DNA of 64,000 bases from an uncultured Bacteroidales bacterium (GTDB lineage Bacteria > Bacteroidota > Bacteroidia > Bacteroidales > F082), in the NCBI GenBank assembly GCA_905234645.1, contig CAJOIS010000002.1, forward strand, positions 59,326 through 123,325. The letters are read 5' to 3'. Under the pieces are notes generated by a model. The model was not told where the DNA came from. It worked only from the letters and a program-made list of their open reading frames with translations, and did not search any database. Made by a program: the position numbers and the translations under genes. Each line of letters starts with the position of its first letter. The first letter of the stretch is position 1. Of the stretch, positions 3,531-59,580 are shown one piece after another.

Positions 3531-4460
3531 TTATCTTGTAGGTTTATGAAAAGTCTCATACAAATAATCATCAAAACCTTTCTCATTCCTATCCAACAAC
3601 ACAAAAGAAGAAAACTCTGACAACAAAATTCTCTCACCTTTATACCTCATAACACGAAGAGGGACATGGCCGTAATAGGAAGACCATTGCGAAAAGGTAC
3701 TGGGAGGACCTATAATATAATCGCACCTACTCAACGCATATAAATCAGTCATACAATCAGAAGGAGACAATGGTTTTATTTGAAACATCTCCACCATTTC
3801 ATCCTTTATAGCAAACGGCTCGTTAGAACAAACCAAAAAACGATGTTTCGCTTCACCCAGGTTCATTAACTGAATATGTATTTGTTGAATAGCATCCCAA
3901 TAGGTCTCATCATCAAAATACCATTTCCCTCCAAAATAAGTCTTATAATCACCTCTTCTTACATGTACTCCTACAGTTAACCCATCATAGGAATCGAATT
4001 CCTTTTCAACATTGGCCACATAACTCTCATCAGGCATAAACATATCCAAGACAGCGGCCCTCTCTTCTTCAATATACGATATGTCATTTCTATGTTCCCA
4101 GCCATCTATACAACAAATCCCTCTCTTATCATCAATTTCAGCCAAATCACCATTCACAACATATTTTGGATTATTCGCCAATCTAACCATTGCTCTCTCA
4201 AACTTATTTCCAAGGTTTTTCTTTGAACTTTTTGTAAAACACATCATAAGCCTCTCCAAACTTTGTCGGCCATCATTGTCTTTTGACAGCAAAAACTTCA
4301 CATATGGATTATGCAAAATATTGGGGAAGTAATCCAAATACTCTTTTCGCTCAAACAAAACATACACTCTCTTTTTGTTATGTATTGCATATGAGATTGT
4401 TGGAAGCAACGAAAACAATCTATTGCACAATTGACCACTATGTTTTATTTGAAGAATCAT
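3531..4460 (-). CDS. GT11-like (alpha-1,2-fucosyltransferase-type) glycosyltransferase
   Basis: Has an HVRRGDY motif (HxRRxD) and an N-terminal GQLCNRLF motif resembling GGLGNQLF. Very AT-rich. Confidence 0.6.
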   Translation of the reverse strand: MILQIKHSGQLCNRLFSLLPTISYAIHNKKRVYVLFERKEYLDYFPNILHNPYVKFLLSKDNDGRQSLERLMMCFTKSSKKNLGNKFERAMVRLANNPKYVVNGDLAEIDDKRGICCIDGWEHRNDISYIEEERAAVLDMFMPDESYVANVEKEFDSYDGLTVGVHVRRGDYKTYFGGKWYFDDETYWDAIQQIHIQLMNLGEAKHRFLVCSNEPFAIKDEMVEMFQIKPLSPSDCMTDLYALSRCDYIIGPPSTFSQWSSYYGHVPLRVMRYKGERILLSEFSSFVLLDRNEKGFDDYLYETFHKPTR

Positions 4461-4571: not shown

Positions 4572-5387
4572 TCATTCTTTGATATAATCCTTCCAAAAAG
4601 TATCATATTGGTACTTGGCCCAAGCATGGCAACCGAATGGCAGCGCGCCCCTTATGGCAAAGACCTCAGAAGGGAATCTCTCGAATGCAAACGACAAAGC
4701 CTCTTCAACACTTGGCTTTGTCAATTCATAATTGGATCCCTCCAGCAGTCCCGACCAAAAATCATCCTCGTTATATTGCCAACGCTTGGCAACAGAATAA
4801 GGTTTGTTCCTCCATCCCATCGCCATCAGCAGCCAAACGAGCCACCTTGAATAGGGCTTCTCTTTGAGTCCTATCCGTTCGGTGAGGTCTCCCGTTTTGT
4901 ACACATACTTCTTCCCGTTGAAGAAATCCATAAAGGCCTTGACACGACGGAGCGAAAAACCGCCATTGCCTACACGTGCCTGGTCGCGGTGAAACTCTAC
5001 ATCTGAAAACCTTCCGAAAATCGGAGCACCCACATAGTCATAACCTTTGCCGCACCATTCCATCAACTCGTCACGGAACACGTATGCATCGGTTTGGCAA
5101 ATTAGGACATACTCATAGTCGGCAAAGCGAGTATAAAAGTCCTTCGACAGCATTAGTCGGTTGTAGCCCTTTATCCCGTCAAAGAAGTATGGTTCAAACC
5201 TTTCATAATGCAAAACCACGCCCTCCGAACTGGCGAGATTGTCATATTGAGATGCATCCATTCCTTTGGGGCATACCAAGACCAAAGGATATTGGCCCAA
5301 CACACGCATCGTTTGACGCAGGGAAATCTCTTCCCACTTGTCAAAACTTGGCTTATAGACGGGTATGACTATGACGACTTTTTGCAT
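4572..5387 (-). CDS. Putative glycosyltransferase, DUF5672-like
   Basis: VIVIPVYKPS..., YDYVGAPI and GNGGFSLRR motifs that I recall from DUF5672-type proteins in glycan loci. Confidence 0.55.
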   Translation of the reverse strand: MQKVVIVIPVYKPSFDKWEEISLRQTMRVLGQYPLVLVCPKGMDASQYDNLASSEGVVLHYERFEPYFFDGIKGYNRLMLSKDFYTRFADYEYVLICQTDAYVFRDELMEWCGKGYDYVGAPIFGRFSDVEFHRDQARVGNGGFSLRRVKAFMDFFNGKKYVYKTGDLTERIGLKEKPYSRWLVWLLMAMGWRNKPYSVAKRWQYNEDDFWSGLLEGSNYELTKPSVEEALSFAFERFPSEVFAIRGALPFGCHAWAKYQYDTFWKDYIKE

Positions 5388-33773: not shown

Positions 33774-33811
33774 GCCCTTCGACCCTTCGACAAGCTCAGG
33801 GCTCAGGGACC
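33774..33811 (+). repeat. CCCTTCGACA..GCTCAGGGACC repeat family, copy 1
   Basis: GCCCTTCGACCCTTCGACAAGCTCAGGGCTCAGGGACC. It abuts the stop of the CCG-domain gene. Confidence 0.7.
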
Positions 33812-34613: not shown

Positions 34614-35846
34614 TTACTGCCGAACAGGCAAAAATTCAGCATCATCCCAGAAGGTGGGATAGGACTTCCCCACTACTTCGGGATGGTCGAAACTGACAGG
34701 GCCGGCGAGCATAGAGAGCGGAGCCAAAGCCATGACGATACGATGGTCATTATGAGCGCAAAAACGAATCGGACGGCTATCCAATTTCGCTAACTCGGTT
34801 TGCATAGCCCGCACCCGATCCGACTCTTTGAACAGAAGGTTGTCAAGCCCCGTGAAAGTGGCTGTAACACCCAATCCGGCACAAGTGGCTGCCATGGTCG
34901 GATAGAGGTCAGGATGCTGGGAGAAATCGAAACGTAAAGGGCGTTTCTCAAAGGGAATCCTTCTCAAAACGAGGGCATCGTTTTCAACAAACGTCCCCAC
35001 ACCCAGTTGGGTCATCCACTCAGCGATAATGGCGTCGCCTTGTAAGTTCGCGGTCCCTGAGCCTGTCGAAGGAGTCGAAGGGCCGCCTAATCCTTGCAAA
35101 CAGACCTCACATTCCTCACTAAACGCCGCCATCTCGTACCAATAAGAGGCTGCGCTCCAATCGGATTCTATTGTAAAATATTGTTTCTCATATGGTTTTG
35201 GCCTGACGACAACCAGTTTGTCTTGTCTTTTAACCTGTGCCGAAAAATGGCACAACATTTTGATGGTCATGTCGAGATAAGGAAGGGAACTGGGACTGCC
35301 AACAAGCTCCATTTCAAGGCCTTGAGGAAACAACGGCGCCGCCAAAAGCAGGGATGAGGCGAACTGGCTGCTTTGGGTCATATCCACTTTCACTTTACCA
35401 CCTTGAAGGGCTTTGCCATGGATCCGCAAAGGAAGGCATCCTTCTTTTTCAACATACTGAATGTCAGCGCCTAAAGCCAACAAAGCATCAACTAAAGGCT
35501 GGATAGGTCGCTGTTTCATGCGCTCGGCGCCAGTGAGGAGCCAGTCGCCTTCGTGACATGCCAGATAGGTGGCCATGAAACGAGCTGCGGTGCCGCAGTC
35601 GGCAATGTTGATGATTGATGTACCTTGTTGAGTTTTATGAATGGCTTTAGAAAGCATAGATTCCTTGCCACGCGCTGCCCTATGCTGGAATGACATGCAT
35701 TCTAAAGCCTCTGCCAAAACCATGGTATCACCCGAATCCGAAAGGTTCCGGAAATCAGGCGCAAAGCCACCATACGCCGCAATCATCAAGGCACGGTTGC
35801 TCTCGCTCTTGCTGGCGGGTAGGGTGATGTCGCAATGAAGTTTCAT
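34614..35846 (-). CDS. aroA: 3-phosphoshikimate 1-carboxyvinyltransferase (EPSP synthase) carrying two in-frame repeat-element insertions
   Basis: LPASKSESNRALMIAA, DCGTAARF, RMKQRPI, SSQFASSLLLAAP, KESDR and NDHRIVMA motifs. See the repeats at 35052-35084 and 35643-35709. Confidence 0.9.
   Translation of the reverse strand: MKLHCDITLPASKSESNRALMIAAYGGFAPDFRNLSDSGDTMVLAEALECMSFQHRAARGKESMLSKAIHKTQQGTSIINIADCGTAARFMATYLACHEGDWLLTGAERMKQRPIQPLVDALLALGADIQYVEKEGCLPLRIHGKALQGGKVKVDMTQSSQFASSLLLAAPLFPQGLEMELVGSPSSLPYLDMTIKMLCHFSAQVKRQDKLVVVRPKPYEKQYFTIESDWSAASYWYEMAAFSEECEVCLQGLGGPSTPSTGSGTANLQGDAIIAEWMTQLGVGTFVENDALVLRRIPFEKRPLRFDFSQHPDLYPTMAATCAGLGVTATFTGLDNLLFKESDRVRAMQTELAKLDSRPIRFCAHNDHRIVMALAPLSMLAGPVSFDHPEVVGKSYPTFWDDAEFLPVRQ
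35052..35084 (-). repeat. CCCTTCGACA..GCTCAGGGACC repeat family, copy 2 (inside the aroA CDS)
   Basis: The minus strand reads GGCCCTTCGACTCCTTCGACAGGCTCAGGGACC, translated as GPSTPSTGSGT. Confidence 0.7.
35643..35709 (+). repeat. ATAGAT/ATGACAT palindromic element, copy E1 (inside the aroA CDS)
   Basis: GGCTTTAGAAAGC-ATAGAT-TCC-22nt-GGA-ATGACAT-GCATTCTAAAGCC. Confidence 0.85.
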
Positions 35847-39522: not shown

Positions 39523-39592
39523 AGTCTTAGTGTTTATGGATATAAAACGCGAAAATAGGCAATTTGTTTTAATAAGATGAACTTTTTTGGAC

Positions 39593-39659
39593 GGCTTTTA
39601 AAAGCATAGATTCCCTCTCTCGCACAAACCCTCGCAGGAATGACATACTTTTAAAAGCC
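39593..39659 (+). repeat. ATAGAT/ATGACAT palindromic element, copy E2
   Basis: GGCTTTTAAAAGC-ATAGAT-TCC-22nt-GGA-ATGACAT-ACTTTTAAAAGCC. Same 67-nt length as E1. Confidence 0.85.
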
Positions 39660-39682
39660 TAAATAAACAATACTATTCACTA

Positions 39683-39738
39683 AGCCTTCGATGTCATTCC
39701 AGCAGAGGAAGTGGGTAGGCTGGAATCTATCGAAGGCT
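39683..39738 (-). repeat. ATAGAT/ATGACAT palindromic element, copy E3 (inverted orientation)
   Basis: AGCCTTCG-ATGTCAT-TCC-21nt-GGA-ATCTAT-CGAAGGCT. Confidence 0.85.
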
Positions 39739-39789
39739 GGTCACGCGATGACATGCTTTCTGAAAGCTGCTTATACGGTTATAAACGCC

Positions 39790-39847
39790 CGACCTTCGAT
39801 GTCATTCCGACAGGGGAAGTGGGCTGGCTGGAATCTATTGGAGGTCG
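39790..39847 (-). repeat. ATAGAT/ATGACAT palindromic element, copy E4 (inverted orientation)
   Basis: CGACCTTCG-ATGTCAT-TCC-21nt-GGA-ATCTAT-TGGAGGTCG. It is part of a ~105-bp tandem duplication with E3. Confidence 0.85.
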
Positions 39848-39881
39848 GGCGATCATACGTATTGCTTTCTGAAAAAAACAC

Positions 39882-41197: not shown

Positions 41198-42304
41198 TTA
41201 TTTATCTTTGCCCATCAATGAGCCCGTCCTAAAGTGCAGATTATCCACTGCCTTTCGACCTACCGGCTTGGAAGGCGTATTGCTGACACGCTTCAAATAT
41301 GCCTTCTCAATGCAATTCTGATAATACTCGTTTTCGTACACAAAAACATCGTCACTTATTTCCTTGATCTGAAGCCTAAAAGCACGTCCATCATCCATAT
41401 TTAAAAACAGGGCACTACTCTCTTCATCAAGGACATATGCATAGCTTGACACCAAAACCGTATCGGGACAAACAATGTGGGTTTCATAAGATTCAGTTTC
41501 CTCGTTCCAATCCAACCATAATTCTTCAATGGAACTATCGCGCATTTCACCAGAATTGTCTTCCCTAAAATACATTTGGATGCCGTTGTCGGTGGAATAA
41601 GGTTCGAATAAGAATGTACTCATTGAGGCTGCAATAGGATTACCTGCATAGTCAGTATTGTAATATTCAAACTTTTCAACACCCCAAACGCCAATGATAA
41701 GATTCTCTGGCTGCTCAACAATAACAGTTACGACATATTCAGCTTGAGAGCCATCCTCAGCGGTCACGGTATATGTTACAGGTTGGGAAAAGTCAGTAAC
41801 ATAATCCGAACAAGGCACAACACTATCATCGTCAGAAACAATGATGGTGGGGACTAAAACTGTAACATCTGTGCCATAAGGCACCGTGGCTTCTATTTCT
41901 TTCGTGTCTTCATTAATAACCGCATCGATATTCAAAGACACAAACCGAAATGCAAGAATTCTTTTTTCGCTGTTTTTTTCATTAGTAACAACTGCTAAAT
42001 AAACCGATTGCGACCCATCTTCCGCTGTCACCGTGTAAGTCACTGGATTTGTAAAATCCATAGGCTCACCAGACAGCGGGCTAATCGTAGCCTTATCCGA
42101 AATGGTGATAATGGGCGTCAAATTGGTGAGATCAGTTCCATAAGGCATTTCCGCTTCAATCCTTCCATCGGAGCATATATCGGCCGTCACATCAGGATTA
42201 GCAAACTGAAATGAGAGGATTTCTTTTTCGCTGCTCTTTTTTTGGCAACTCGATAATACCATTAGAATTGCCAAAATGACGATTGAATTGATCGCTTTTT
42301 TCAT
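41198..42304 (-). CDS. Lipoprotein with two tandem Ig-like repeats and a C-terminal domain
   Basis: Lipobox LSSC. There are two ~85-aa repeats, each ending PVTYTVTAEDGSQ..Y. Confidence 0.6.
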   Translation of the reverse strand: MKKAINSIVILAILMVLSSCQKKSSEKEILSFQFANPDVTADICSDGRIEAEMPYGTDLTNLTPIITISDKATISPLSGEPMDFTNPVTYTVTAEDGSQSVYLAVVTNEKNSEKRILAFRFVSLNIDAVINEDTKEIEATVPYGTDVTVLVPTIIVSDDDSVVPCSDYVTDFSQPVTYTVTAEDGSQAEYVVTVIVEQPENLIIGVWGVEKFEYYNTDYAGNPIAASMSTFLFEPYSTDNGIQMYFREDNSGEMRDSSIEELWLDWNEETESYETHIVCPDTVLVSSYAYVLDEESSALFLNMDDGRAFRLQIKEISDDVFVYENEYYQNCIEKAYLKRVSNTPSKPVGRKAVDNLHFRTGSLMGKDK

Positions 42305-42348
42305 AGTGATTGGCTTTTAATTGTATTCTATAAACTTCTTAATACATC

Positions 42349-42402
42349 GCAGGTATAGATCCCAAGCCTACACACATGCCAGCGTTGGGATGACACGCCT
42401 GC
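42349..42402 (+). repeat. ATAGAT/ATGACAY palindromic element, copy E5
   Basis: GCAGGT-ATAGAT-CCCAA-19nt-TTGGG-ATGACAC-GCCTGC, followed by a partial duplicate, TGACATGCCTGC. Confidence 0.75.
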
Positions 42403-42414
42403 TGACATGCCTGC

Positions 42415-44422: not shown

Positions 44423-44461
44423 TTAAGGTCCGGGCCCTTCGACAGGCTCTGGGACCCTTAA
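44423..44461 (+). repeat. CCCTTCGACA..GCTCAGGGACC repeat family, copy 3
   Basis: TTAAGGTCCGGGCCCTTCGACAGGCTCTGGGACCCTTAA. It is itself an imperfect palindrome, upstream of dapA. Confidence 0.7.
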
Positions 44462-59491: not shown

Positions 59492-59511
59492 CGGTGCATT
59501 CATTAAAAACA

Positions 59512-59558
59512 GAATCGACCGCCTATAGATCCCCAAGGGGATGACATAGGCGGTCGAT
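59512..59558 (+). repeat. ATAGAT/ATGACAT palindromic element, copy E6 (minimal form)
   Basis: AATCGACCGCCT-ATAGAT-CCCC-aa-GGGG-ATGACAT-AGGCGGTCGATT, between the convergent lemA and DUF3467 genes. Confidence 0.85.
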
Positions 59559-59580
59559 TTCGGTAATGTCTATAATAGTT

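Follow-up and report, generated by a model that had tools for sequence, protein, structure and literature searches.

The window analysed here, a 64,000-nt stretch of contig CAJOIS010000002.1 from an uncultured Bacteroidales bacterium, carries on its minus strand the gene aroA, which encodes a 5-enolpyruvylshikimate-3-phosphate (EPSP) synthase of 410 residues and is kept directly after aroB. Within aroA lies a 67-nt hairpin repeat (Table 1) with the sequence GGCTTTAGAAAGC-ATAGAT-TCC-[22 nt]-GGA-ATGACAT-GCATTCTAAAGCC, the two 13-nt arms of which are complementary except for a single A.A mismatch. As had been claimed in an earlier note on this DNA, the repeat was found to lie wholly inside the minus-strand aroA open reading frame (ORF) and to be read through without a stop codon, yielding the peptide ALECMSFQHRAARGKESMLSKA as residues 47–68 of AroA. 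The same note had placed this peptide immediately N-terminal to the conserved DCGTAAR motif, which is incorrect, as 14 residues separate the end of the peptide from that motif.

The pattern ATAGAT-N8-35-ATGACAY has seven matches in the window against 0.09 expected, one of which (4081–4109) has no arms and was set aside as a chance match. A covariance model built from copies in relatives matches the window at exactly six places (E from 5e-20 to 1e-9), and these are the six places at which pattern copies had previously been listed, with the correction that the last copy ends at ~59560 rather than at 59558. All five copies outside aroA are intergenic, in agreement with their earlier description as non-coding, and this includes the copy that shares the 67-nt architecture of the aroA copy. 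Three of the five form a cluster between the divergent genes of a PglZ response regulator and an HD-domain protein. Folding of either strand, as DNA or RNA, returned the expected hairpin with z-scores from -3.7 to -7.8, the RNA fold reaching energies between -25 and -33 kcal/mol at z-scores of -3.9 to -7.8.

Table 1. The aroA gene and the copies of the hairpin repeat in the window
Feature	Position	Strand	Bounds of model match	Remarks
aroA, EPSP synthase, 410 aa, host gene	34614–35846	-		intact, purifying selection
Hairpin repeat in aroA	35643–35709	+ (antisense to aroA)	35642–35710	covariance model 76.4 bits, E = 5e-20; fold z ~ -4
Left arm GGCTTTAGAAAGC of aroA copy	35643–35655	+		arm pairing covaries across copies
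41-nt core ATAGAT+TCC+22-nt C-rich loop+GGA+ATGACAT	35656–35696	+		segment found inverted in related genomes
Right arm GCATTCTAAAGCC of aroA copy	35697–35709	+		
Intergenic copy, 67-nt architecture as in aroA	39593–39659	+	39592–39660	model 77.3 bits; first of cluster of three
Intergenic copy, opposite orientation	39683–39738	-	39677–39744 (-)	covariance model match
Intergenic copy	39790–39847	-	39785–39852 (-)	model match; orthologous copy with same arms in L011 and L030
Intergenic copy between DUF5018 gene and 4HBT thioesterase gene	42349–42402	+	42342–42410	covariance model match
Short-loop copy ATAGAT-CCCC-AA-GGGG-ATGACAT, between convergent LemA and rpoC genes	59512–59560	+	59511–59561	

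The aroA ORF matches sequences in the PDB down to E = 1.6e-52, and its catalytic set of residues (K13, S14, N17, R18, G85, R89, R113, S159, S160, Q161, K340, E341, R344, H368, R369 and K394) is invariant in 31 orthologues. The ratio of nonsynonymous to synonymous substitution rates (dN/dS) was 0.22 in comparison with a relative whose AroA is 88% identical and 0.12 in comparison with one at 78%, both of which carry the same insert. Because of these dN/dS values and the intact catalytic residues, aroA with the element is, as judged from its sequence, the gene of a working enzyme and not a pseudogene, the latter being a possibility that the earlier note had singled out as damaging to its proposal. 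An AlphaFold2 model of AroA has a mean predicted local distance difference test score (pLDDT) of 78.7, and values below 50 are confined to residues 1–3, 53–66 and 254–268. The second of these segments falls within the element-encoded peptide, most of which is modelled with low confidence, and the inserted peptide is predicted to be a floppy loop.

When species-representative genomes were scanned with an alignment of AroA, the sequences returned came from uncultured Bacteroidales of the rumen and gut that carry the labels 'Ca. Limimorpha', 'bacterium F082' or RUG/RGIG metagenome-assembled genomes, the best match being 74% identical. The host is accordingly a rumen F082-type member of the Bacteroidales and neither a Prevotella nor a Bacteroides. 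The orthologue comparison that had been proposed was thereby made, with rumen F082-type Bacteroidales as the relatives and not with the Prevotella and Bacteroides genomes named at the time. Measured as the number of residues between the conserved motifs SNRALMIAA and DCGTAAR, the site spans 65 residues in the window, 43–44 in 17 of the 40 clade species and 41–50 in 30 of 33 species of more distant Bacteroidota, while other clade members have 54, 57, 60, 67, 72, 76, 84 or 106. The short site of the outgroup species agrees with the statement in the earlier note that Bacteroides-type enzymes have only a few residues at this position. Relative to the nearest empty relatives, EAL[R]KTQ.. is changed to EAL[ECMSFQHRAARGKESMLSKAIH]KTQ.., such that one residue is replaced by 22, and the net gain of 21 residues (63 nt) appears as the gap that an insertion of ~22 residues should leave. 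The DNA of every longer site form contains the ATAGAT/ATGACAT palindrome, intact or decayed, and no homologous peptide without a palindrome, which would have spoken against such an insertion, was found among the orthologues compared. The outer 7 nt of the left arm overlap the conserved E-A-L codons of aroA.

A different origin of the peptide could be read from the HMMER alignment, in which the segment is aligned without a large gap to a similar-length stretch in Vibrio and E. coli EPSP synthases: the peptide would then be ancestral to the AroA lineage, or a relic of an E. coli-type hairpin, and the palindrome coincidental. Almost no identities occur in this aligned segment, however, and both the Bacteroidota-type outgroups and 17 clade members lack it. 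Moreover, the boxes of the family are found in either orientation, encoding unrelated peptides, and the covariance model assigns the aroA copy an E-value of 5e-20. The likeness in length to the E. coli/Vibrio-type stretch is a coincidence and not homology, and since a stretch that is about as long but unrelated occurs in these enzymes, the gap is visible only in comparison with Bacteroidota-type enzymes. An ancestral peptide, like the alternative of a decaying pseudogene, which the dN/dS of 0.12–0.22 and the intact catalytic residues contradict, is therefore extremely improbable, both having been refuted for practical purposes by the empty sites, the palindrome, the model score and dN/dS.

AroA contains a second repeat, CCTTCGACAGGCTCAGGGAC, which is unrelated to the hairpin and is located at 35053–35072 (minus strand) and accompanied by an incomplete tandem duplicate. 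Its in-frame translation forms part of GGPSTPSTGSGTA and provides the low-confidence residues 254–268 (pLDDT <50) of the model. Its site represents the second length-variable site among AroA orthologues, the nearest relative P0001 being 8 aa shorter. Further copies of CCTTCGACAGGCTCAGGGAC are present in the window at 33784–33803 and 44436–44455 (both plus strand; 0 expected), and the reverse orientation of the motif, which reads VPEPVEGP, is present in L139 and L150 ORFs. On TIGR01356, aroA scores 261.7 bits, below the curated equivalog cut-off of 287.25, a shortfall in which both loops encoded by repeats may play a part.

The anatomy of the hairpin family was derived from 70 distinct copies in the window and the aroA loci of relatives, and from 190 copies among the listed contigs of a metagenome scan, in which the element was found on at least 120 contigs. 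The standard core of 41 nt consists of ATAGAT, YCC, 22 nt, GGR and ATGACAT, its 22-nt loop being C-rich (consensus ..C.CGCAC...CC.ACG..) with invariant or nearly invariant C at inner positions 10, 12, 14 and 19. As a single strand, this core presents a 2x3 internal loop (AG/GAC) bordered by A-U pairs and a 3-bp stem; in short forms, such as the window copy at 59525 and the aroA copy of L017, a tetraloop takes the place of the loop. For the internal loop, K-turn and loop-E motifs were considered by hand and rejected, the bulge and strand arrangement being unfit for a canonical K-turn.

The arms are mostly 7–15 bp long, with a peak at 13, and vary in sequence between copies, the two arms within a copy remaining complementary. 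Paired arm cells amounted to 91%, a percentage that is inflated by the choice of copies with at least 7 of 10 arm pairs, compared with 36–46% in slid controls; covariation is not affected by this choice, 13 of 15 arm pairs were changed on both sides, and none of 500 shuffles attained the observed score. Among arm mismatches, G.T is not in excess over A.C. On the basis of the 6 nt adjoining the core, arm subfamilies (GAARGC, CCTCCY, GCAGSC and others) were distinguished. The position of the left arm on the E-A-L codons had suggested that arms are copied from the target site; as the subfamilies are common to unrelated sites, target-derived arms are not the general rule. Only a weak C...T preference was observed outside the arms, the conserved ATAGAT and ATGACAT being internal.

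In the 80 aroA loci (1.38 Mb), the covariance model has 86 matches, which belong to 24 clade species, each with a filled aroA site, with the exception of a single match in the outgroup locus L042. Species whose aroA site is empty had none in their 21-kb loci, and the family is lineage-specific to uncultured rumen Bacteroidales (F082/'Ca. Limimorpha' clade). A failure to find further copies genome-wide had been named as an outcome that would refute the proposed insertion; copies are instead present in the related loci and on the metagenome contigs. A link to phages was dropped, as a scan of 2.9 million viral contigs returned only three matches.

Copies occur singly, as inverted dimers or in arrays, and for the most part downstream of genes. 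Of the 190 metagenomic copies, 61% have another copy within 150 nt, the neighbouring pairs being in opposite orientation in 72 of 73 cases, with a sharp spacing of 46–51 nt for -+ pairs. Some of the metagenome contigs carry arrays of 8–10 copies; those of L105 (1–1505) and L115 (540–1800) alternate strictly in orientation and are built of composite units of ~221–262 nt with 40-nt tandem half-elements (GGATGACATGGCTTCAAAGGCC...). Intergenic copies are located between co-directional genes in 68 cases, convergent genes in 34 and divergent genes in 10, and their orientation relative to transcription is unbiased (35 same, 33 opposite). Direct repeats of 2–6 nt beside the arms, as would be left by target-site duplication, were no commoner than in permuted controls.

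Some intergenic sites differ between relatives. The site between the PglZ and HD-domain genes holds three copies in the window, none in the relative with the 88%-identical AroA and one in the 78% relative. In L013 (6325–6455) and L005 (5858–6007), this site is without the element and contains a different palindromic sequence (GGGATTCCC..GGGAATGG / ..CCCGAAGGGAATC), possibly representing another repeat family. Furthermore, a 368-aa DUF5018-family gene (41198–42304, minus strand) is located in the window between the HD-domain and 4HBT thioesterase genes, adjoining the copy at 42349–42402. In the close relative L204, the HD-domain and 4HBT genes are ~100 nt apart and the gap holds just an element copy (4814–4865), indicating that the DUF5018 gene was gained or lost beside the repeat.

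The strong covariation of the stems around a strictly conserved internal loop, together with the conserved loop nucleotides, the stable predicted fold (-25 to -33 kcal/mol) and the enrichment of copies downstream of genes (34 convergent versus 10 divergent), would also suit a structured RNA motif such as a hairpin that binds protein and stabilizes, terminates or regulates mRNA, the aroA copy then acting at the mRNA level. Against this stands the even distribution of orientations relative to transcription (35:33), as well as the conservation of both orientations at the aroA site, where the mRNA loop is C-rich in one case and G-rich in the other. G.U pairs do not exceed A.C mismatches, and Rfam (15) gave no match at its gathering thresholds over the window and nothing beyond chance level even at E <= 10 around the copies. 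We consider an RNA motif distinctly improbable; from the lack of orientation bias, the absence of a G.T excess and the occurrence of both orientations at the same aroA site, we infer an action at the DNA level and not one as a strand-specific RNA.

Comparison of aroA genes revealed that the core can change its orientation. The genes encoding P0033 and P0100 share 91% nucleotide identity, with element flanks that are identical at 60/60 and 57/60 positions, and their 41-nt cores are reverse complements of each other at 40 of 41 positions, such that LPF[IDSRQRTNPCRND]IKG in one protein corresponds to LPF[MSFLHGFVRWRES]IKG in the other. At least three arm types exist at the aroA site, and three of them were each observed in both orientations with the arms unchanged; between L006 and L040, even an asymmetric arm mismatch is retained across orientations. 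This implies a minimum of three or four inversion events at the aroA site. The 41-nt core can thus invert in place between its arms, swapping IDS...ND[MI] and MSF...ES[MI] peptides.

The aroA site has also undergone other rearrangements. In L009 (10145–10260), an element lies within the loop of a second one, and tandem copies are present in L022, L023 and L038. In L037 (10146–10352), a tandem duplication of 114 nt spans the element along with flanking codons, and an additional 24-nt insertion inside the core of the second copy results in a site of 106 residues with an open frame. A variant-core copy (ATAGAT-GCTCTCCCTCC..GGC-ATGACAT) is located further downstream in the aroA of L009 (10807–10871), near the second variable site. 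The loop positions that are conserved in aroA copies coincide with those conserved in non-genic ones (rho 0.79), irrespective of the encoded peptide. No other 24-codon stretch of aroA is as well conserved between the window and L205 as the element, which shows 97% nucleotide identity and 100% at third positions, compared with 78% for the whole gene (dS 1.09). The first 240 nt of aroA (codons 1–80) are ~90% identical to L205 and the rest 62–80%.

Insertion into reading frames is not restricted to aroA, as 25 of the 190 metagenomic copies (13%) lie in frame inside long ORFs. The host genes include those of a GT39-like membrane protein, a GH20 hexosaminidase, a GH3 glycosidase, Mfd, PrmC, RluD, topoisomerase III (one or two copies), a polyprenyl synthase (two copies) and a TIGR01212-type radical-SAM protein. 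Aligned with solved homologues, the GH20 protein has 15 additional residues and the GH3 protein 13, accounted for by the element peptide in each case. The analogy to Rickettsia palindromic elements (RPEs) that had been drawn for the aroA copy holds, at this proportion of in-frame genic copies, as a likeness in behaviour. Beside aroA, the 3-dehydroquinate synthase gene aroB contains an in-frame inverted dimer at ~codons 12–57 in L022 (8908–9039), and likewise in L004, L006, L007, L012, L020, L023, L028–L031 and L040, reading ..QASES[IDS..NDM]HPEALES[MSS..GSM]LSKASQVF... An ATG within the second aroB element could serve as an alternative, new start codon. In the syntenic comparison of filled and empty intergenic sites, the copy pair labelled '1 kb upstream' proved to be located within the reading frame of aroB; no insert is present in the aroB of the window.

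The frames occupied by genic copies follow a rule, as assessed by scoring frame openness on 127 standard 41-nt cores. Frame +0 is open in 92% of these cores and contains 18 genic copies, while frame -0 is open in 87% and contains 8. Frames +1 and +2 are open in 0/127, being closed by the TAG in ATAGAT and the TGA in ATGACAT, respectively, and contain no genic copies; none was found either in frames -1 and -2, which are open in 57% and 36% of cores. Frame 0 is consequently the only frame that is open both ways and the only one found for standard-length genic copies, although the statistical weight of this rule is moderate because orthologous genic copies are not independent. As an in-place flip maps +0 to -0, +1 to -1 and +2 to -2, only frame 0 survives inversion, and recurrent flipping would thus appear to have filtered the genic copies.

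These observations raise the question of a programmed intragenic inverton, in which a dedicated invertase would often flip the 41-bp core within a population and thereby provide two protein variants per gene, a form of phase variation through recoding. Exact in-place inversion between 11–13-bp inverted repeats is documented here, the frame used is open both ways while frames that are closed after a flip hold no genic copies, and the conserved boxes just inside the arms are possible recombinase-binding sites. Bacteroides intragenic invertons of similar size have been described, with a 57-bp inversion and with inverted repeats of 11 nt (PMC10028968). Conversely, no mixed orientation was observed within any of ten clusters at 90% identity, comprising 51 readable aroA sequences, in which consensus assemblies show the majority orientation, and the window's 65-aa clade is uniformly in the minus orientation, down to ~71% identity. 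With one fixed state per cluster, flips appear as rare fixed differences between lineages, and no invertase was identified. A programmed inverton is accordingly regarded as unlikely.

Taken together, the data make it highly probable that the aroA repeat represents an in-frame insertion into a working aroA by a lineage-specific, dispersed hairpin family whose core inverts in place. The ancestral Bacteroidota-type aroA would have had only ~9 residues at the site. As the sequence comparisons indicate, the element entered aroA in a stop-free frame and appears to have been carried since as a translated segment of 21–22 residues in a working enzyme. The family may spread, or exchange between sites, via a trans-acting structure-specific enzyme and/or gene conversion between copies, and core inversion may proceed by recombination or template switching between the arms.

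Several points weigh against this explanation. The net gain in length is smaller than the element, amounting to +63 nt for the 67-nt element of the window and to +39 nt for the 57-aa form; given this short gain and the position of the left arm on pre-existing E-A-L codons, the insertion event is not cleanly reconstructed. On a rough neighbour-joining tree, filled and empty aroA alleles are interspersed, so that several gains or several precise losses are needed, and the boxes have decayed in the aroA copies of L007, L027, L031 and L038. That the insert is translated in AroA is likely from its open frame and from purifying selection. The comparison with L205 suggests a recombination tract at the 5' end of aroA that includes the element; since the element sits in the generally better-conserved 5' third of the gene, part of its conservation may stem from this tract and not from constraint. 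No mobilizing gene was found, a crude regular-expression scan for an HUH (Y1) transposase over ~2.4 Mb of related DNA, covering the loci and the window, having yielded only a radical-SAM false positive. Finally, the element lacks the terminal GTAG or CGTC tag of the two large superfamilies of repetitive extragenic palindromic (REP) sequences (PMC3733652).

A more far-reaching reading is that the repeats are not passive selfish DNA, but nucleotide-constrained invertible DNA modules. These would be recognized by a structure-specific recombinase or HUH enzyme, reside in dozens of housekeeping genes (aroA, aroB, mfd, topB and glycoside hydrolase genes), flip in populations at a low frequency and recode loops at the protein surface. 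The exact inversions, the restriction of genic copies to the inversion-proof frame and the conservation of loop nucleotides inside aroA whichever peptide is encoded would be compatible with such modules; we regard this reading as unlikely.

If the aroA repeat is an in-frame insertion, in-frame colonization of essential genes by palindromes, so far documented mostly in Rickettsia and in a small number of REP-rich species, extends to an abundant group of uncultured rumen Bacteroidales. The frame rule provides a testable signature and points to recurrent flipping. For annotation, the consequences are loops of variable length and low confidence in many proteins, true orthologues that can fall below curated score cut-offs (261.7 versus 287 bits for aroA) and start codons that can be miscalled, as in aroB. 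From other phyla, intragenic REPs and RPEs have been described (PMC3733652, PMC10969869). In the full-text literature, no description was found of this family, nor of intragenic REPs or RPEs in Bacteroidota, consistent with the earlier remark that no such case was known from this phylum.

Among known systems, REPs are short palindromes, usually of 20–40 nt, with a GTAG or CGTC tag at one end; they are mostly intergenic, favour unidirectional and convergent gene pairs and form inverted dimers and clusters, and occasional genic copies encode 20–30 extra residues, including in DNA-repair and replication genes (PMC3733652). The present family resembles REPs and the bacterial interspersed mosaic elements (BIMEs) that they form in being a high-copy set of short imperfect palindromes that are mostly intergenic, biased towards unidirectional and convergent gene pairs, arranged in inverted dimers and clusters, without target-site duplication and occasionally genic. 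It differs in its length of 55–70 nt, in the conservation of an internal core (asymmetric 2x3 loop and C-rich apical loop) while the stem sequence varies, and in that no REP-associated tyrosine transposase was seen in a crude motif scan of the loci and the window. To our knowledge, in-place inversion of the centre has not been reported for REPs. Of the 'REP/MITE-like' label originally given to the palindrome, the REP/BIME-like organization is retained, with the reservation that the REP tag is missing. Likeness to a MITE (a miniature transposable element with inverted repeats) is not, because the element has no direct target-site duplication and is for that reason REP/BIME-like rather than MITE-like.

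RPEs, of ~100–150 bp, encode a conserved peptide in one orientation (PMC10969869). As in RPEs, a palindromic family is found in frame in many unrelated housekeeping genes, with functional host proteins and a placement tolerated by the fold. In contrast to RPEs, the aroA repeat measures 67 nt, ~13% of the listed copies are genic, inversion gives rise to two alternative peptides and it is the nucleotide sequence that is conserved; the host belongs to a different phylum and no likeness in motif was noticed, the two families having been set apart without a formal sequence comparison. With Bacteroides intragenic invertons (PMC10028968), the element shares a genic segment, flanked by ~11-nt inverted repeats, that is found either way round and recodes the protein while keeping the frame free of stop codons. 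The segment examined here differs from these in being derived from a dispersed family, in an orientation that varies between lineages and in that no invertase is implicated. In chloroplast non-coding DNA, hairpin loops flip recurrently between short inverted repeats without a dedicated enzyme. The core inversions resemble these small inversions in that a loop flips between stem repeats, in the chloroplast by recombination or template switching, the chloroplast cases differing in that they affect non-coding organelle DNA and not a dispersed family with a conserved core. A single element thus joins dispersed hairpin repeats and protein-recoding intragenic inversions, which have so far been treated separately.

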